DNA from: Escherichia coli
GTDB taxonomy: Bacteria > Pseudomonadota > Gammaproteobacteria > Enterobacterales > Enterobacteriaceae
Length of the DNA stretch: 64,000 nt
Direction: 5' to 3' (one strand)
Assembly (NCBI RefSeq): GCF_003018235.1
Contig: NZ_CP027437.1
Both the position numbers and the translations under genes were made by a program. Below are positions 2,994 to 43,700 of this stretch, piece by piece. The notes below the pieces were generated by a model. The model ran no database searches. It worked only from the letters and a program-made list of their open reading frames with translations, and was not told the origin of the DNA. Each line of letters opens with the position of its first letter. Positions within the stretch are counted from its first letter, which is position 1.

Positions 2994-3024
2994 AAAAAAA
3001 ACCCGCTGATTAAGCGGGTTTTGA
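2994..3024. terminator. Bidirectional terminator between convergent crcB and cspE
   Basis: aaaaaaa-acccgctgattaagcgggtt-ttg hairpin. Confidence 0.6.
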
Positions 3025-3041
3025 ATTCTTGCTGACGTATC

Positions 3042-3251
3042 TTACAGAGCGATTACGTTTGCAGCAGAAGGGCCTTTGGCACCGTTAGTGATTTCGAACT
3101 CTACGCGCTGACCTTCAGCAAGAGTTTTAAAACCATTAGTCTGGATTGCAGAGAAGTGTACGAACACGTCTTTGCTGCCGTCTTCCGGAGTAATGAAACC
3201 GAATCCTTTGGACTCATTAAACCACTTAACGTTACCTTTAATCTTAGACAT
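3042..3251 (-). CDS. cspE: Cold-shock-domain protein CspE
   Basis: ORF-track entry 3042..3335 trimmed to the ATG giving the 69-aa [20 protein letters not shown]... CspE sequence. Confidence 0.95.
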
Positions 3252-3425
3252 CAAAATTACCTTTACATGAAAAATAGACACAAATGCTGTGTCGGTTACC
3301 AGTACACCAATTGTGGTACGCTTTGTCCAGTGCAACTTTACTAAAAAGTGATAAAAGTCGCGTTATTTTTGATGTTAATTATTTTACTCATTGATTTTAA
3401 AGAGTTTACTAAAATTTCATTTGTC

Positions 3426-3986
3426 TCAAAACTGAAAGCGCATCCAGGCAAAGTACACATTGCCATTGTTATAGGTACCCGGAATGTAGGTCATCTGAAA
3501 AGTCACTGGACCATAACCCACAGAGGCCAATGGCAGTAGAACCGGGAGAGGGATGTAATTCCAGTTATCGCGTGCCGTTACGCCAGCGGTGAATCCCAGT
3601 CCTAAATGAAAATTTTCATCTGCCAGCGGTCGCCAGGTACTTTCCCATCCGTATCCGGCAATCGGTTCCCATTTGTTCCACGAGTCCTTAAATGCCATGG
3701 CATACAGGCCATGCCAGTTTCCTTTTTCATCCCATCGCGACTGACCAAAACCGCCCCCCCACGGTCGCTCGTTATAGCGATCGGTTTTTTCTTTGTCGTA
3801 AGCGAAACGTGCATGCCAGGTGATGGCAGGAATATATAAATCATAATGTTCAGGCTGTTGCCAGGTTTGTGCAATATTTTCTCTAAACGTTGTCATCCAC
3901 TCATCTGCGTTAGCAAAAACTTTACCAACGCTGATTAACTGAATAAAAACAAAGGAAAAGATAGCGACATATTTACTCACGTTCAT
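3426..3986 (-). CDS. pagP: Lipid A palmitoyltransferase PagP
   Basis: ORF trimmed to [14 protein letters not shown]... (186 aa), outer-membrane beta-barrel PagP. Confidence 0.93.
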
Positions 3987-4473
3987 TTGTGACCATAAAA
4001 CATTTATCAAAAATCTACTACTAGCATAGCAAAGCTACAATTAACATAACCTTAATAGCCCCAACATAAAGAACAATCTGAATAGCTGCTCTATTTATTT
4101 CCGCTTGTTTAAGTTAAATATTTCCGCGCATCGATTAAAGATGATGCGTCGTTTTCTGCGATGGGAATAGTCAAAAAAGAAAAACCAAGTCTTTTTTGAT
4201 GACAAAATGCAACCAAGAAAAAATTACTTTATTTTTTAATGAGATACAAAAAAAATTCCTTAACGAAAAATATATTATATATCGTCAACCCATGATCATG
4301 GTAGATTATTTTTTGAGCGCACACCCGCGGCTAACACCATTGCAATTAACAAATTTGCATCAATCCACCATCAATTTACACACATTATTATGTGATAATT
4401 GCCAACCGCTAAATATGCGTTTTGTTATCTATGTATAAAAACAGCAACTTCAATGTCTTAATGGCAGTTTTTC

Positions 4474-4487
4474 TTGATTTTAATCAG
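4474..4487 (+). promoter_or_regulatory. Putative FNR box upstream of dcuC
   Basis: TTGAT-TTTA-ATCAG, near-consensus TTGATnnnnATCAA, about 90 bp upstream of the dcuC ATG; dcuC is known to be anaerobically induced. Confidence 0.4.
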
Positions 4488-4576
4488 CATTCACCGCCAA
4501 TTTATTGGGCATATTTTTTCCTTAAGCTTTAGGAATTTTTTATTATTTACTTTGGGGCCTGGAGACAGGAAAAATT

Positions 4577-5962
4577 ATGCTGACATTCATTGAACTCCTT
4601 ATTGGGGTTGTGGTTATTGTGGGTGTAGCTCGCTACATCATTAAAGGGTATTCCGCCACTGGCGTGTTATTTGTCGGTGGCCTGTTATTGCTGATTATCA
4701 GTGCCATTATGGGGCACAAAGTGTTACCGTCCAGCCAGGCTTCAACAGGCTACAGCGCCACGGATATCGTTGAATACGTTAAAATATTGCTAATGAGCCG
4801 CGGCGGCGACCTCGGCATGATGATTATGATGCTGTGTGGCTTTGCCGCTTACATGACCCATATCGGCGCTAATGATATGGTGGTCAAGCTGGCGTCAAAA
4901 CCATTGCAGTATATTAACTCCCCTTACCTGCTGATGATTGCCGCCTATTTTGTCGCCTGTCTGATGTCTCTGGCCGTCTCTTCCGCGACCGGTCTGGGTG
5001 TTTTGCTGATGGCAACCCTGTTTCCGGTGATGGTAAACGTTGGTATCAGCCGTGGTGCAGCTGCTGCTATTTGTGCCTCCCCGGCGGCGATTATTCTCGC
5101 ACCGACTTCAGGGGATGTGGTGCTGGCGGCGCAGGCTTCCGAAATGTCGCTGATTGACTTCGCCTTCAAAACAACGCTGCCTATCTCAATTGCTGCAATT
5201 ATCGGCATGGCAATCGCCCACTTCTTCTGGCAACGTTATCTGGATAAAAAAGAACACATCTCTCATGAAATGTTAGATGTCAGTGAAATCACCACCACTG
5301 CCCCTGCGTTTTATGCCATTTTGCCGTTCACGCCGATCATCGGAGTGCTGATTTTTGACGGCAAATGGGGTCCGCAATTACACATCATCACTATTCTGGT
5401 GATTTGTATGCTGATTGCCTCCATTCTGGAGTTCATCCGCAGCTTTAATACCCAGAAAGTTTTCTCTGGTCTGGAAGTGGCTTATCGCGGGATGGCAGAT
5501 GCATTTGCAAACGTGGTGATGCTGCTGGTTGCCGCTGGGGTATTCGCTCAGGGGCTTAGCACCATCGGCTTTATTCAAAGTCTGATTTCTATCGCTACCT
5601 CGTTTGGTTCGGCGAGCATCATCCTGATGCTGGTATTGGTGATCCTGACAATGCTGGCGGCAGTCACGACCGGTTCAGGCAATGCGCCGTTTTATGCGTT
5701 TGTTGAGATGATCCCGAAACTGGCGCACTCTTCCGGCATTAACCCGGCGTATTTGACTATCCCAATGCTGCAGGCGTCAAACCTCGGCCGTACCCTGTCA
5801 CCCGTTTCTGGCGTAGTCGTTGCGGTTGCCGGGATGGCGAAAATCTCACCATTTGAAGTCGTAAAACGCACCTCGGTGCCGGTGCTTGTTGGGCTGGTGA
5901 TTGTTATCGTTGCTACAGAGCTGATGGTGCCAGGAACGGCAGCCGCGGTCACAGGCAAGTAA
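4577..5962 (+). CDS. dcuC: Anaerobic C4-dicarboxylate transporter DcuC
   Basis: 461-aa polytopic membrane ORF, full-length DcuC match. Confidence 0.95.
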   Translation: MLTFIELLIGVVVIVGVARYIIKGYSATGVLFVGGLLLLIISAIMGHKVLPSSQASTGYSATDIVEYVKILLMSRGGDLGMMIMMLCGFAAYMTHIGANDMVVKLASKPLQYINSPYLLMIAAYFVACLMSLAVSSATGLGVLLMATLFPVMVNVGISRGAAAAICASPAAIILAPTSGDVVLAAQASEMSLIDFAFKTTLPISIAAIIGMAIAHFFWQRYLDKKEHISHEMLDVSEITTTAPAFYAILPFTPIIGVLIFDGKWGPQLHIITILVICMLIASILEFIRSFNTQKVFSGLEVAYRGMADAFANVVMLLVAAGVFAQGLSTIGFIQSLISIATSFGSASIILMLVLVILTMLAAVTTGSGNAPFYAFVEMIPKLAHSSGINPAYLTIPMLQASNLGRTLSPVSGVVVAVAGMAKISPFEVVKRTSVPVLVGLVIVIVATELMVPGTAAAVTGK

Positions 5963-6683: not shown

Positions 6684-8310
6684 TAGGTTTCACTTTCGGA
6701 ATATAGATTGAAAATAAGGTACCGCAGGGATCATTATCTTCGAGAGTGATAACACCACCGCAGCGCGTTACGTAGCTGGCAATCAAGTACAACCCAATGC
6801 CATGTTCGCCGGGCTCGTCAGCACGCGTACTGACACCCTGCTCAAATATTTTGTCTCGTAGAGACTCTGGAACGCCGCAGCCCTGATCGGCGACTTCAAT
6901 CACCACATCATCGCCTTCATCGCTGAGGAATAATTCAACGATCTTGTTTCCTTCATCGCTACGCAGGCTGGCTTCGAAGGCGTTATCAAGTAAATTGCCC
7001 ACAATGGCTGCAAACTCGGTGCTGTCCAGTCCTGGCGGCAGTTGCGAAAGCTGACTTCCGGGGACGATGACCATTTTTAGCCCCAGTTCGCGGGCGCGCT
7101 GCACTTTACCAAAAAGCAGCCCCGCCACCTGGCGATCGGCAAACGCCTCGCGCAGGCTATCAATAAGCTGTTGCTGGGCCTGAGACTCCCCCTGCACCAT
7201 CGCCAACACGCGATCATACTCTTTCATCTGCAACAGACCATTGAGCGTCGACATCCAATTGAGATGCTCGTGTCGCAATGTGCGCAGGCTCTCGACGTAT
7301 TGTTTAATTTGCGTCAGTTGCGCATTGAGGGTGGATATTTCGTCTTTACTACGAAAGCTGATAATGGCCCCCAGCAAATCATCACCAGAACGAATAGCTT
7401 CCCGGTTGGCAATAACGCTCAGACCGTTAAAGTTCGCCACCACATCCTGACGTTTTTCATCAATCTGTTCGGTAAAGAAATCGGCGGGCCTGACCACTTC
7501 AGCAATGGGTTTACCCAACCATTGCCGTCCGGGGGAACTCAGACCCAGCATCTTTCTTGCGTTACGATTGATGGCGGTAATGTAACCATGCGGATCCACC
7601 GCAATGAGCCCTTCATAAACCGAACTAAACAGCGCCTCTTGCTGACGGACCACGCGTGCGATTTGCTTTGGCTCCATGCCCATCATCTGCCGACGGATAT
7701 GCGCGGCCAGGAACCACGATAGCAACATCAGAATCCCTAACAGCACGACAAACACGCCAGCCATCGGTAATAAAAACTCAGCCCGCCAGCTATCGATTTT
7801 ACTCACCAGGTAGCCAATCGACACCACGCCGATGACTTTTCCATCGTCATCAAAGATTGGCGTTTTGGCACGCATCGCCATGCCAATTGACCCTTTCCCG
7901 GTGATGAAGTAGCTCTCCCCTTTCTCCAGCGCGCCCGGTTTGGTGAACTGCATAGGATAACCAATTTTCTCCGGATTAGGATGGTAAAGACGAATCGAGT
8001 GGCGATCGCCAATCACCACATAATCGAAATCAGTATCTCTTTGTAATTTATCAGCGATGGTCGCCAGCCTCTTGTAGTCACGCGTTTTCACTGCGCTGAT
8101 GATACTGTCATTAGAAGCAATAATTTTTGCCTGATTCATTGCCATGTCGCGCACATGAAGCGTTAAATAGTCCTCAAAACTGGCCGTAAAATATTGCGCC
8201 AGGGCTGCAATGACAAATATTGAGAACACCAGAATCAGCAAAAAGATACGCAGCGGAAATGCCAGTCTTTGGAAAAATGCAAACTGTTTATTCTCGTTAA
8301 GCTGCAACAT
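6652..8310 (-). CDS. dpiB: Sensor histidine kinase DpiB (CitA)
   Basis: ORF-track 572 aa trimmed to MLQLNENKQF... (552 aa); periplasmic citrate-sensing domain plus HATPase; 32-nt overlap with dpiA. Confidence 0.92.
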   Translation of the reverse strand: MLQLNENKQFAFFQRLAFPLRIFLLILVFSIFVIAALAQYFTASFEDYLTLHVRDMAMNQAKIIASNDSIISAVKTRDYKRLATIADKLQRDTDFDYVVIGDRHSIRLYHPNPEKIGYPMQFTKPGALEKGESYFITGKGSIGMAMRAKTPIFDDDGKVIGVVSIGYLVSKIDSWRAEFLLPMAGVFVVLLGILMLLSWFLAAHIRRQMMGMEPKQIARVVRQQEALFSSVYEGLIAVDPHGYITAINRNARKMLGLSSPGRQWLGKPIAEVVRPADFFTEQIDEKRQDVVANFNGLSVIANREAIRSGDDLLGAIISFRSKDEISTLNAQLTQIKQYVESLRTLRHEHLNWMSTLNGLLQMKEYDRVLAMVQGESQAQQQLIDSLREAFADRQVAGLLFGKVQRARELGLKMVIVPGSQLSQLPPGLDSTEFAAIVGNLLDNAFEASLRSDEGNKIVELFLSDEGDDVVIEVADQGCGVPESLRDKIFEQGVSTRADEPGEHGIGLYLIASYVTRCGGVITLEDNDPCGTLFSIYIPKVKPNDSSINPIDR

Positions 8311-19629: not shown

Positions 19630-20193
19630 TTAGATTTTACCAACCAGGTCCAGAGACGGAGCCAGAGTTGCTTCACCTTCTTTCCATTTAGCCGGGCAAA
19701 CTTCACCTGGGTGAGAAGCTACGTACTGTGCTGCTTTGATTTTACGCAGCAGGTCAGACGCGTCACGGCCAATGCCTTCAGCGGTAACTTCGATTGCCTG
19801 GATGATACCCTGCGGGTCAACAACGAAGGTCGCACGGTCAGCCAGACCTTCATCTTCACGCATGTTGTCGAAGTTACGGGTCAGGGCGCCAGTCGGGTCG
19901 CCGATCATCGCATATTTGATTTTAGCGATGGTTTCAGAGCTGCTGTGCCATGCTTTGTGGGTGAAGTGAGTATCGGTAGATACTGCGTATACGTCTACGC
20001 CCAGTTTCTGCAGTTCTTCGTAGTGGTCAGCAACGTCACCCAGTTCGGTCGGGCATACGAAAGTAAAGTCAGCCGGGTAGAAGAAGAAGACGCTCCAGCG
20101 GCCTTCGGTATCTTTTTCGGTGATTTCGATGAATTCGCCGTTTTTGAATGCCTGGTTTTTAAAAGGTTTAATTTTGGTGTTAATCAAGGACAT
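19630..20193 (-). CDS. ahpC: Alkyl hydroperoxide reductase subunit C (peroxiredoxin)
   Basis: 187-aa ORF with peroxidatic FTFVCPTE and resolving Cys motifs. Confidence 0.97.
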
Positions 20194-21311: not shown

Positions 21312-21518
21312 AAGATAATTCATGGATGGTTGAAATATATCCCTGTTTTTCAACCATCCTAAAAAAGCATGAATTGCTCGCTCTGCCCTAAGTGGCTGTG
21401 CTATTTTAGAAAAACTTAATTCTGAGTTAAGCAAAAAAATATAATACAAATAAATACAACAGCAACATTATTGAACAAATGAATGATTTATAGAAGAGAT
21501 AATATAACGGAGTATGTT

Positions 21519-22421
21519 ATGGCGAATCTTTATGACCTAAAAAAATTTGATCTGAATTTACTGGTCATATTTGAGTGCATTTATCAACACCTCAGCATTA
21601 GCAAAGCAGCAGAATCATTATATATAACGCCCTCTGCTGTTAGTCAGTCGTTACAACGTTTACGCGCGCAATTTAATGACCCGTTATTCATCCGCTCAGG
21701 GAAAGGTATCGCGCCGACTACGACAGGGTTAAACCTGCATCACCATCTTGAGAAGAATCTCCGAGGCCTTGAACAAACGATCAATATTGTTAATAAGTCT
21801 GAGCTAAAGAAAAATTTTATTATCTACGGTCCTCAGCTTATTTCTTGTACTAATAACAACATGCTAATCTGCTGTCTTAGACAAGATACTTCAATCGATA
21901 TAGAATGCCATGACATACTGCTTTCAGCTGAAAATGCCGAAGAACTGTTGGTTCAACGCAAAACTGACCTGGCAATTACACTACAACCAGTAATTAGCCG
22001 CTCTGTCATCTGCATGCCGTTACATACTATTCGCAATTCTCTTATATGTAGCAATAAACATCCTCGTATTACCGATACCAGTAACTATGAACAAATTATC
22101 GCCGAAGAATTCACCTTGTTGATATCTAAATCAGCAGGGATTGACGAAATTCAAATGGACATAGATGAACGTTTTATGAACCGTAAAGTTTCATTTCGCA
22201 GTTCTTCTTTGTTGACGATAATTAATAGTATTTCTGTTACTGACTTATTGGGCATTGTGCCCACCGAACTGTACGATTTACATCGTGATTTTTTGAAGTT
22301 ACAAGAGATAAAACTGGAACGACCACTTCCTGCGGTTAAACTTTATATTTCCTATAACAAGGCTTCGTTGAACAACCTTGTCTTCTCACGATTCATAGAT
22401 CGTTTAAATGATAGCTTCTGA
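21519..22421 (+). CDS. ybdO: LysR-family transcriptional regulator YbdO
   Basis: Trimmed to MANLYDLKKFDLNLLVIFECIYQH... (300 aa); N-terminal LysR HTH; gene is conspicuously AT-rich. Confidence 0.85.
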   Translation: MANLYDLKKFDLNLLVIFECIYQHLSISKAAESLYITPSAVSQSLQRLRAQFNDPLFIRSGKGIAPTTTGLNLHHHLEKNLRGLEQTINIVNKSELKKNFIIYGPQLISCTNNNMLICCLRQDTSIDIECHDILLSAENAEELLVQRKTDLAITLQPVISRSVICMPLHTIRNSLICSNKHPRITDTSNYEQIIAEEFTLLISKSAGIDEIQMDIDERFMNRKVSFRSSSLLTIINSISVTDLLGIVPTELYDLHRDFLKLQEIKLERPLPAVKLYISYNKASLNNLVFSRFIDRLNDSF

Positions 22422-22567
22422 TTTATTACCACGGATAAATGTTATATTACGCATCAATTGATTCATTGTGTGAATATAAAATAATGTGCTCTATCTTGCT
22501 TCGTTTACCCTATAATTAACGGATTCATCTCACGAGTCACCCCGTAACGTTCAGAGAGCGTTTTCAG

Positions 22568-40493: not shown

Positions 40494-40650
40494 GGGGTAT
40501 AACCTGAAAATGAGTCCAATAAGAGTAAATCTCCACGGCCCCCACTCTACCAGTTGGTGAGATTTATCCGAAGCTGAAGTTTGTAAATTACTCCCACTGA
40601 ATGCAACATTCACTCTATTTCAGAGAAACACCCACCAAATTTATAAATTA

Positions 40651-40693
40651 AACAAATGATAAACCCATAATTATTTTCTGTAATTATGGGTTT
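40651..40693 (-). terminator. Rho-independent terminator downstream of entF
   Basis: aaacccataattattttctgtaattatgggttt perfect 13-bp-arm hairpin; minus strand has a U-rich tract after it. Confidence 0.55.
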
Positions 40694-40708: not shown

Positions 40709-43700
40709 TTACTTATTTAGCGTCGCACGAATAATCGGCCCAATTTTTTCAAACGCCACCGGAGAGATAATATCCACATGCGCACAATCCTGACGATAGA
40801 TATCCAGCTCAGCAATCCACGGTGCCCAGGCCTGTTCAGGACTCATACCTTCCTGAAGCGTGCGTTCGGCAACAAATAGCGTCGCTTTACCATCAAACGG
40901 TACGCTATGAGCTGTCGTCAGCAGGCGCACAGCATCAGCGTAGTTGCCTTCAATGGTGGTAAACAACTCCGTTGAAGTACTTCCCTGCTGTGCCGCCAGG
41001 AAGGCTTCGCGCTCGCGGTTAATCTCCGCCAGCACTTCCGGGTCCAGACCATTAGCCTCTTTTTCCTGCCAGTTTTGCGTTTCTGGCGGCCAGGTATCCA
41101 GCAAGCCAAGAAATGCCACCTGTTCGCCACGGGCACGCAGTCGCGCCGCAATGCCCTGCGCCAGCGTACCGCCCAGCGAATACCCCAGCAGGTAATAAGG
41201 GCCGTGCGGTTGTTGTTCAAGTAACGTTGCCAGATGCGCTTCGCAGACTTCATCCAGGTTTGCCGCGGTCTGCATGGGGCCATGAGGGCGCGGCGACTGA
41301 ATGCCAATAATCGACCATTGTGGATCGAGATAACGCGAAAGCACGCTAAACTGCCAGGCAAAACCGGAGGCCGGATGGAAACAAAACAGCGTCGGGCCAT
41401 TACCTTCACGCAACGGCAGAATGGTTTCGAATCCCATGCGCTGGGTGCTGTCTTCTTCACCATCAATAATCGTTGCCAGTTTGGCGACAGTTGACGCGAC
41501 CATCACCTGCCCCGGCGTCACCTGGCGGGTAAACTGCCGACTTAACTGCGCAGCCAGTTTCATTGCCAGTAGCGAATGACCGCCAAGCGCAAAGAAATCA
41601 GCATCGGCATCCTGCACGTCACAACCCAGCAACGACGAGAATGCCGCGGCGATAATCGTTTCACTGCCCGCTTTCGGCGCACGCCCCGGCGCTTGTGCCT
41701 TCAGTTCAGGCAACGGTAAGGCTTTGCGATCCAGCTTGCCGTTGGCGCTAAGCGGCAACTGCGGAAGTTGCAGCAGAACCACGGGCACCATATGCGGTGG
41801 CAATGTTTCGCGCAACTGCGCCTGCAATGCAGTGGTATCCAGCGGCAGGCCTGATTGCGACACCAGATACCCAACCAACTGACGCGCATCGCCTCCCGTT
41901 GCGGCAGCCTGGTTAATGACGCAGGCGTGGGTAACGGCCTGTTCGACATCCGGCAGTGCCTGCATCACGCGATCGATTTCGCCCAGTTCAATACGCTGCC
42001 CGCGAATTTTTAGCTGATCGTCACTGCGCCCGAGGTACTCCACCGCGCCGTTATCCAGCCAGCGGGCAACGTCTCCGGTACGGTACATCCGTTCGCCAGG
42101 GGCAAAAGGATCGGCAATAAAGCGGCTGGCGGTCAGATCGGGTCGTCCAAGATACCCCTGCGCCAGTTGAATACCGGTGAGATAGAGATCTCCCGCCACA
42201 CCCGGCGGCACCGGATGCATCATCGCATCAAGAATACGCAGGCCCGTATTCCACACCGGATAACCAATCGGCACACTGCTGCCGCGCACCTGTGCCAGTT
42301 CCTCGCCAAAAGCCGGATACCAGCTGACATCTACCGCCGCTTCCGTCGGGCCATATAAATTATGCAACGGCGCGCTGGTTAACTGTTGCCATTCGCGGCA
42401 TAAATCAGCGGGTAAGGCCTCACCACTACAGAAAACCTGTTTCAACGTCGCGCAATTCTGACGAGCGGTTTGCGGAGTCAGCGATGCAACAAATGCCGCC
42501 AGCATCGACGGCACAAAGTGCGTGGTCGTTACACCATATTCGGCAAAGAATTGCTGCATAGCGAGCGGGTCGCGGTGCGCTTCCGGTTCAGCCATCACCA
42601 GTTTAGCCCCGGCAATAAACGGCCAGAAAAACTCCCACACCGAGACATCAAAACTGCACGGCGTTTTTTGGGCAACGACATCTTCGCCTGTAAGCGGGTA
42701 GTGGTTTTGCATCCAAAGCAGGCGGTTAACGATAGCCGTCTGCCCGACCATTACCCCTTTTGGTCTGCCGGTGGAACCTGAGGTGAAGATGATATAAGCC
42801 GTGTGGTGCGGTTGTGAAAGCTGCAGCGGCGCACTGCCCTGCGGTGTAAGCGGGGCGTTATAGCAAAGGTTGGTTAAATCTGGAACATCGGCAAAGCGCG
42901 GCAGTTGATCGTCGGTGGTGATTAACAGCGACGGACGCGCATCTTCCAGCATCATTTTCAAGCGATCGTCCGGATAACCGGTATCCAGCGGTAGCCAGGC
43001 CGCGCCAGCTTCAACTATCGCATGTAGCGCCAGGGTCAAAAAGACCGAGCGCGGTAGCGCCACCGCCACGCTGTCCCCTGGTTTAACGCCGCGCTCACGC
43101 AGCAGATTCGCCAGCGCCACCACCTGCTCGCGCATTTCCCGATAGCTGAACTGGTAACGCGCATCTGCCAGCGCCGGAGCATGCGGCGTTTTTGCCGCTT
43201 GTTCTGCCACCAGCGCGCTAAGCGTGGTTTCTGGAATCTCAACCTGAGTGGCGTTGATCTGCGCCAGCTGCGCATACTCACCTGGCAGCATAATATCGAC
43301 ATCGCCGCACAACAGCGCCGGATCCGCGGCGAACTGGGCAATCAGCATTTTCAGGCGTTCAGCATGCTGGATTAACGTTGGCTCATCGTAACGCTGTTTA
43401 TTGGCGAGGATCTCAATACTCAAATCACCGTGTTCATCCGGGAACAGTGCCAGTTCAAGGTCATTAACCGGACCGGTTGCTAGTGTATGGGTTTGCGCCT
43501 GAACACCAGGAATATCCAGTTGGTAATCAAATACCTTGATATTGAGTACCGGACCAAACAGCGGTTCATCACCTGCCGCTCGCCCGCTGTCACGGACAAT
43601 TTGTTCGGCATCGTAACGTTGATGACGACGCATTTTTTTCAGTTGTGCTGCCAGTCGGGTTGCCAGTTGCGGCAGCGTTTCTTGCGCCGCAATGTGAATA

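Follow-up and report, generated by a model that had tools for sequence, protein, structure and literature searches.

The AT-rich pagP-dcuC spacer of Escherichia coli, a divergent regulatory region with a conserved FNR site

The pagP-dcuC locus

The DNA analyzed here (the window) is a stretch of 64,000 nucleotides from E. coli contig NZ_CP027437.1. In the region of interest the gene order is crcB (+), cspE (-), pagP (-), dcuC (+) and dpiA (-), according to the RefSeq annotation of matching E. coli records. What lies between the divergently transcribed pagP and dcuC genes? The features that we assign to this spacer and its borders are collected in Table 1. Because pagP begins at the ATG at position 3986 and not at the TTG at 4010, the spacer is 590 bp long. 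The preliminary description of this DNA had set the left boundary at 4011 and the length at 566 bp, following an in-frame upstream TTG in a mechanically compiled list of open reading frames; this boundary is its sole error. No annotation is found under the spacer in the listed RefSeq E. coli records, and a search with Tandem Repeats Finder returned no tandem repeats within it.

Table 1. Features of the pagP-dcuC spacer and its borders (window coordinates; pi, nucleotide diversity)
Feature	Position	Strand	Basis and remarks
pagP (crcA) coding sequence, 186 aa	3426-3986	-	Start ATG 3986; RefSeq annotation of the K-12-type and A10 records, translation
pagP-dcuC divergent intergenic region, 590 bp, GC 31.7%	3987-4576	.	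Unannotated
pagP core promoter segment	3987-4060		pi 0.028
pagP extended -10, TGcTATGCT, predicted start near 4016	4023-4031	-	Own scan; cross-genus alignment
PhoP box TATTAAggttaTGTTAA	4041-4057	-	12 nt upstream of the pagP -10; one half-site conserved across genera; published position
Intervening segment	4061-4199		pi 0.046; near-neutral
Weak terminator-like hairpin GCGCATCGATTAAAGATGATGCGT	4126-4149	+	Not conserved; altered in SE15, FSIS and other Escherichia species
Chance 80-aa open reading frame, TTG start	4196-4438	+	Frameshifts or stops in 5 strains; no Pfam match; first half in hypervariable core
Distal promoter-like sequence ATGACA-17-AATTAC (AATTAT in K-12)	4199-4227	+	Last -10 base lost (C) in this allele
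Hypervariable core	4200-4335	.	pi 0.129, versus 0.013-0.021 in flanking coding sequence
Constrained block	4336-4469	.	pi 0.020; invariant motifs across Escherichia, including ATTAACAAA and GTATAAAAACA
dcuC core promoter segment	4470-4576		pi 0.018
FNR site TTGATtttaATCAG	4474-4487	+	9/10 consensus positions; conservation; same site in Table S6 of Myers et al. 2013, under an FNR ChIP peak
dcuC -10 hexamer CATATT (CACATT in most genera)	4510-4515	+	Conserved spacing, alignment; no -35 match
Predicted dcuC leader, putative start near 4522	4522-4576	+	Shine-Dalgarno AGGA 4567-4570, 6 nt before the ATG
dcuC coding sequence, 461 aa	4577-5962	+	Open reading frame list and RefSeq annotation

The spacer had been described as very AT-rich and unusually long, and it is both. 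Its GC content is 0.317, versus 0.519 for the window, and only 0.1% of the 590-nt windows in a scan of the window are as GC-poor. The K-12 counterpart of the spacer, at 588 bp, is the longest of the 31 intergenic gaps in the corresponding 50 kb, where the next-longest gaps measure 378, 374 and 371 bp. Of 5426 complete E. coli genomes, 5381 contain the spacer, each in a single copy. Consensus-like sigma-70 promoters are depleted in the 750 bp from 3900 to 4650: none is present, versus 3.3 +/- 1.8 in shuffled sequences. This absence fits activator dependence on both sides of the spacer.

A number of observations on the genes around the spacer can be recorded here. The ybeM gene (deaminated glutathione amidase; 1721-2515, - strand) forms an uninterrupted frame of 264 codons in the window. 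The annotations of A10 and SE15 likewise give it as intact, and those of the K-12-type record and MINF_8D as frameshifted. In E. coli MINF_8D an IS1 element lies about 150 bp into the spacer (positions 3150-4250 of the extracted locus, L086), dcuC, dpiA and dpiB are missing, and citC adjoins the insertion sequence. The pagP gene appears to be degraded in Escherichia sp. MOD1-EC7003 (L004), where a tblastn match covers 402 nt for 186 residues, and in E. coli SCPM-O-B-8794 (L005), where only residues 127-186 were found; both lineages have kept an intact dcuC with its FNR promoter.

The FNR site and the promoter of dcuC

The box TTGATTTTAATCAG at 4474-4487 is centered 96.5 bp upstream of the dcuC ATG (4577), and it agrees with the inverted repeat TTGAT-N4-ATCAA of class II FNR promoters at nine of ten positions. 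Because the window contains seven sites with one mismatch to the FNR consensus versus 2.5 expected, a count reached by 1 of 100 shuffles, a single match of this quality is not significant by itself. That the box is genuine was thus decided by its conservation and not by the lone motif match. Other one-mismatch matches lie at window positions 440, 13691, 26998, 33579 and 56023. We dismissed a cluster of FNR-like and PhoP-like matches at 20154-20187 (the FNR-like match is at 20174), which is located within the ahpC coding sequence.

To what extent is the site conserved? We compared the dcuC loci of 80 species representatives from about 18 enterobacterial genera. In 79 of these loci an FNR site with at most two mismatches lies within 200 nt of the dcuC ATG, and in the 80th, from Citrobacter amalonaticus S646 (L045), the same site is found 334 bp upstream, behind a leader insertion of about 235 bp. 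The TTGAT-N4-ATCAG box to which the preliminary description had drawn attention upstream of dcuC is therefore real and present in every one of the 80 Enterobacteriaceae species loci. When at most one mismatch is allowed, 58 of the 80 loci still have the site, versus 1.1% of upstream regions after shuffling. Among 79 loci, 77 have TTGAT as their left half-site. On the promoter-proximal side every one of the 79 carries ATCAG, GTCAG or ATCAT, and none carries the consensus ATCAA. The site is retained irrespective of whether pagP is the upstream neighbor of dcuC. We note that the C. amalonaticus insertion, which spans about 90-320 nt upstream of dcuC, contains internal inverted repeats, resembles a repeat element, and separates the FNR/-10 module from the Shine-Dalgarno sequence.

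The only other strongly conserved element in the cross-genus alignment of dcuC upstream regions is a CAyATT hexamer, and the distance from the center of the FNR site to the last base of this hexamer is 34.5 bp in 69 of 72 loci. If transcription starts 7 nt downstream of the hexamer, near 4522, then this spacing would put the center of the FNR site at -41.5. Class II FNR promoters, for example those of dmsA and narG, have their FNR site centered near -41.5. The predicted position of the dcuC site, together with the lack of a -35 hexamer, would therefore correspond to the class II layout. Inspection by eye of positions 4336-4469 revealed no convincing second FNR site, CRP site or NarL heptamers.

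Published genome-wide data place FNR on this site in vivo. Myers et al. (2013, PMC3688515) assign to dcuC an FNR ChIP-seq peak located at 655,298 and list the operon among those directly activated by FNR; by our coordinate conversion this peak is about 10 bp from the box in the window. Their Table S6 lists CTGATTAAAATCAA at 655,281 for dcuC/pagP with a score of 12.38 bits and a ChIP "+", and this sequence is the reverse complement of the box in the window. Likewise, dcuC is "Activated" by FNR in their RNA-seq comparison of an fnr mutant with the wild type (Table S8), and its aerobic/anaerobic expression ratio of 0.05 corresponds to a 20-fold anaerobic induction (Table S12). For the FNR dependence of dcuC Myers et al. 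(2013, PMC3688515) in turn cite Zientz 1999. The preliminary description had made its interpretation depend on anaerobic induction and on FNR binding; both are found in these published data, and the interpretation passed. The FNR-like box is a genuine FNR site, and on this the ChIP peak and the FNR-dependent activation agree with the conservation seen here.

For dcuC, Myers et al. (2013, PMC3688515) add the remark "TSS not in peak region". A catalogued dcuC start thus lay elsewhere, and the -41.5 geometry derives solely from the conserved -10-like hexamer. We regard this putative geometry as a small refinement of a site that the ChIP-seq paper left unplaced relative to a start. We propose that under anaerobiosis an FNR dimer would occupy TTGATtttaATCAG (4474-4487) and stand in for the missing -35 element. 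Bound FNR would recruit sigma-70 RNA polymerase in the class II manner to the -10 hexamer CATATT (4510-4515), and dcuC mRNA beginning near 4522 would carry an unstructured leader of about 55 nt with an AGGA Shine-Dalgarno sequence. The proposed promoter resembles known class II FNR promoters in its near-consensus repeat over the -35 position, in its lack of a -35 hexamer and its weak -10, and in its published anaerobic, FNR-dependent induction and in vivo FNR occupancy. It differs from them in that the promoter-proximal half-site is never the consensus (79 species), in that the dcuC start is predicted, and in that Escherichia dcuC has an additional constrained block of 134 bp upstream.

Two further ideas about dcuC expression were rejected. 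The leader does not look like an attenuator: it offers a weak 5-bp stem followed by a T-run, and the RNA of 4522-4600 is predicted to be unstructured (minimum free energy -8 kcal/mol, z-score +1.39). Similarly, a sigma-54 promoter was considered in view of the RpoN SELEX peaks in the spacer; inspection by eye showed that the two parts of TGGCAG-N6-TTGA (4462-4477) are wrongly spaced and that the GC expected in the -12 element is missing.

The pagP promoter and silencing by H-NS

On the other side of the spacer, TATTAAggttaTGTTAA agrees with the PhoP direct repeat (T/G)GTTTA-N5-(T/G)GTTTA at nine of twelve positions. Since this pattern is unspecific by itself (185 matches with at most three mismatches in the window versus 123 expected), support for the PhoP box comes from its conservation across genera and its published position. 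In the cross-genus alignment oriented along pagP, a half-site of the TGTTAA type and the -10 are both conserved. Harari et al. (2010) place the PhoP site of E. coli crcA 32 bp from the start versus 44 bp in Salmonella, and the E. coli distance fits a box centered at 4049 with our predicted start near 4016. The -10 aligns with TATTAT, which Zwir et al. (2012) give as the -10 in Salmonella, and the anaerobic sigma-70 ChIP-seq peak of Myers et al. at 655,742 falls, by our conversion, at about window position 4024, which is on the pagP -10. In the same study crcA is expressed 3.4-fold higher anaerobically, as are other genes of the PhoP regulon (Myers et al. 2013, PMC3688515). We propose that the PhoP box (4057-4041, - strand) and the extended -10 (4031-4023) would together drive pagP transcription from a start near 4016.

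The E. coli arrangement can be compared with the Salmonella pagP promoter, classified as architecture IV (Zwir et al. 2012). The two promoters share an orthologous gene, a half-site of the TGTTAA type, the position of the -10 and PhoP dependence. They differ in that the best E. coli box is one helical turn nearer to the -10, at 12 versus 23 nt, a difference that has already been published. Elsewhere in the window, a PhoP box without a single mismatch to the consensus, GGTTTATCATTTGTTTA, is found upstream of wzz(fepE), in the spacer that separates this gene from entF (40649-40665, - strand), directly after a hairpin that resembles an entF terminator.

How is pagP kept silent? Its promoter is subject to H-NS: a pagP-lacZ fusion is derepressed 18-fold by deletion of hns, and SlyA is needed for induction in biofilm (PMC4147861). 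RcsB together with GadE provides a further input to pagP (PMC6106083), and the dcuC-pagP spacer has been flagged as an H-NS target by genomic SELEX (Shimada et al. 2014, PMC3946193). The spacer has the AT-richness associated with H-NS silencing, being among the 0.1% of most GC-poor windows. Matches to the H-NS high-affinity motif TCGATAAATT are as many as expected in the window (60 versus 60) and are uninformative. At the dcuC FNR site, Table S6 of Myers et al. (2013, PMC3688515) shows no ChIP enrichment of H-NS, IHF or Fis, and simultaneous loss of hns and stpA leaves the occupancy of this site by FNR unchanged (PMC3688515). The lack of a nucleoid-protein signal at the FNR site indicates that it is the pagP side and the central part of the spacer that are silenced, and not the dcuC promoter; H-NS may cover only part of the spacer. 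The preliminary description considered the region likely to be bound by nucleoid proteins, a view that the 18-fold derepression of pagP and the SELEX flag bear out, with the qualification that the FNR site itself is unmasked.

We propose that the roughly 400 bp of AT-rich DNA between the two promoters would serve as a platform from which H-NS silences pagP, its coverage probably extending over the pagP side and the spacer middle, and that SlyA and RcsB/GadE would relieve this silencing. This proposal follows the pattern of H-NS silencing with SlyA or RcsB counter-silencing at other AT-rich promoters of envelope genes, with which pagP shares AT-rich upstream DNA, derepression in hns mutants, and the need for SlyA and RcsB/GadE. 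Unlike at those promoters, a neighboring FNR site is left unmasked by H-NS.

The middle of the spacer, alternative readings and significance

We divided the spacer into five segments and determined pi from 12 E. coli strains (Table 1). The segment 4061-4199 can be considered near-neutral since its pi is close to the diversity at four-fold sites, which is 0.045-0.095 in six strains. The core at 4200-4335 falls into about four haplotype classes that are 12-20% apart and incongruent with the flanking genes. For example, FSIS11705876 and K-12 are 0.4% apart in the flanks and 18% apart in the core. Does the core stand out as an exceptional island? When 136-nt windows were ranked over about 48 kb against K-12 and SE15, it reached only the 97.5-98.5th percentile, and several other spacers in the window are equally or more divergent; we have downgraded the idea accordingly. 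Relative to K-12 and SE15, the stretches 21380-22510, 7981-8116 and 41791-41926 exceed the pagP-dcuC core in divergence. In the uspG/ybdR/yldA area, around 22.4 kb, the divergence reaches 34% within 136 nt; SE15 is without ybdR. The distal promoter-like sequence at the left edge of the core corresponds, in its ATGACA-17-AATTAT form, to a distal dcuC promoter predicted by RpoD SELEX (Shimada et al. 2014, PMC3946193).

The adjoining block, 4336-4469, is under constraint equal to that of the dcuC core promoter, and its pi is about one third of that of four-fold sites. Outside Escherichia, only an A-tract is conserved in it. On the improbable reading given below, candidate factors acting at this block would be ArcA, SdiA, or RcsB-GadE at the GAD-box-like core TTTTGTTATCTA (4420-4431). 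The full 20-bp GAD box has no match at up to three mismatches. Its 12-bp core has two matches in the spacer versus 0.43 expected for the whole window, a weak lead in DNA this rich in A and T.

Could the block and the leader act together? An inverted repeat pairs 4509-4522, which spans the -10 and the discriminator, with the Shine-Dalgarno sequence and AUG at 4567-4580. Folding predicts that transcripts from upstream starts hide the dcuC ribosome-binding site and that RNA begun at the FNR-dependent start is open. This recalls the "fold-back inhibition" of IS10 that Davis, Simons and Kleckner reportedly described in 1985, whereby read-through transcripts sequester their ribosome-binding site. 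As in IS10, sequence just upstream of the start is complementary to the Shine-Dalgarno sequence and AUG; unlike in IS10, the pairing is statistically unremarkable and lacking outside Escherichia. Its z-score is -1.8, its energy ranks 5th of 44 neighboring genes, and we saw no compensatory double changes. We have downgraded the idea on account of the energy rank and the restriction to Escherichia. If it held, upstream starts could arise from allele-specific or spurious promoters in the recombining core 4200-4335 or from a candidate extended -10, TGTGATAAT (4391-4399). A fold-back peculiar to Escherichia that ties dcuC translation to the FNR start by keeping upstream-started transcripts silent, with 4336-4469 as an uncharacterized Escherichia-specific control module, is in our estimate a long shot.

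Three other readings bear on whether the spacer contains anything beyond two promoters and whether FNR acts at its right-hand end. An open frame of 80 codons is present in this allele, and it or another short frame of the spacer might be a real, unannotated protein gene. The 80-codon frame is shifted or stopped in all five of the other E. coli strains compared (K-12, A10, SE15, FSIS11705876 and A8), and in A10 this is so even at 99.2% identity to the window over the spacer. The frame starts with TTG, no purine-rich Shine-Dalgarno sequence precedes it, and nowhere does the spacer vary more than in the frame's 5' half. Pfam gave no match for this frame or for four further short ones in the spacer, and the mini-frames MMRRFLRWE (4141) and MRFVIYV (4415) are without an ATG in other Escherichia species. 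The decay in close relatives already refutes the reading for the 80-aa frame, and a protein gene in the spacer is highly improbable; the frame had been called probably not coding, and the comparison agrees. A small regulatory RNA on the pagP strand is the second possibility, and here there is a precedent: Wang et al. (2016) predicted Ssr31 of Shigella flexneri 2a, an RT-PCR-positive RNA of 295 nt, between pagP and dcuC on the pagP strand. In an E. coli counterpart the block 4336-4469 would be the promoter or 5' part. From TTTATA-16-CATATT, a weak candidate promoter on the minus strand, transcription would begin near 4405, and about 280-295 nt further downstream it would reach the hairpin read as 4149-4126. 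Against this, the promoter candidate matches at only 8 of 12 positions, no more than is usual in AT-rich DNA; the hairpin, the only terminator-like one in the spacer, sits in the near-neutral segment and is unconserved even within E. coli; and the scan gives no terminator-like site on the minus strand. The RT-PCR signal may also stem from a pagP transcript of greater length or, if the assay did not distinguish the strands, from a transcript in the dcuC direction. An Rfam search (E-value <=1) gave no match in 3353-5000, its one result being a cspA-type model over cspE, and the spacer shows neither a match to a covariance model nor a conserved promoter with a terminator. We consider such an RNA unlikely.

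The remaining alternative is that the AT-rich DNA matches the FNR consensus merely by chance and that dcuC is induced anaerobically by another route, for example through ArcA. Chance alone would supply 2.5 one-mismatch matches per window, ArcA and SdiA SELEX also list dcuC, and an ArcA site has been predicted in the spacer, albeit without ChIP signal (Park et al. 2013). Retention of the box in 80 of 80 species at a fixed spacing to the -10 speaks against chance, and published FNR occupancy by ChIP-seq and fnr-dependent expression have already refuted it; we give this alternative practically no weight. We therefore return to a spacer that is very probably a compound divergent regulatory region of two unrelated genes, with no gene of its own. 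As such it is ordinary, and its main parts have been published: FNR binding and the FNR-dependent, anaerobic induction of dcuC on one side, and the PhoP dependence and H-NS repression of pagP on the other. As a separate observation, the Rfam model over cspE is RF01766 (cspA thermoregulator), which covers the whole cspE transcript region (2994-3352, - strand) with 123 bits versus a gathering score of 78; this suggests, at the level of a covariance-model match, that cspE mRNA has a cspA-like leader and structure.

Finally, the region is an already characterized divergent regulatory region, and both the observation and the interpretation in the preliminary description are correct apart from the left boundary. 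Our analysis adds a phylogenetic footprint, which places the conserved FNR site at -41.5 of a predicted start, and the evidence, from its decay in other strains, that the 80-aa frame is spurious. It also adds the 134-bp constrained block at 4336-4469, the one place for a possible new regulator site, and a control, according to which local hypervariability of this kind is shared by several spacers in the window. DcuC exports succinate in anaerobic growth and fermentation, and PagP palmitoylates lipid A. These functions bear on gut colonization, biofilm survival and immune evasion, and the control region that the two genes share is thus biologically relevant.
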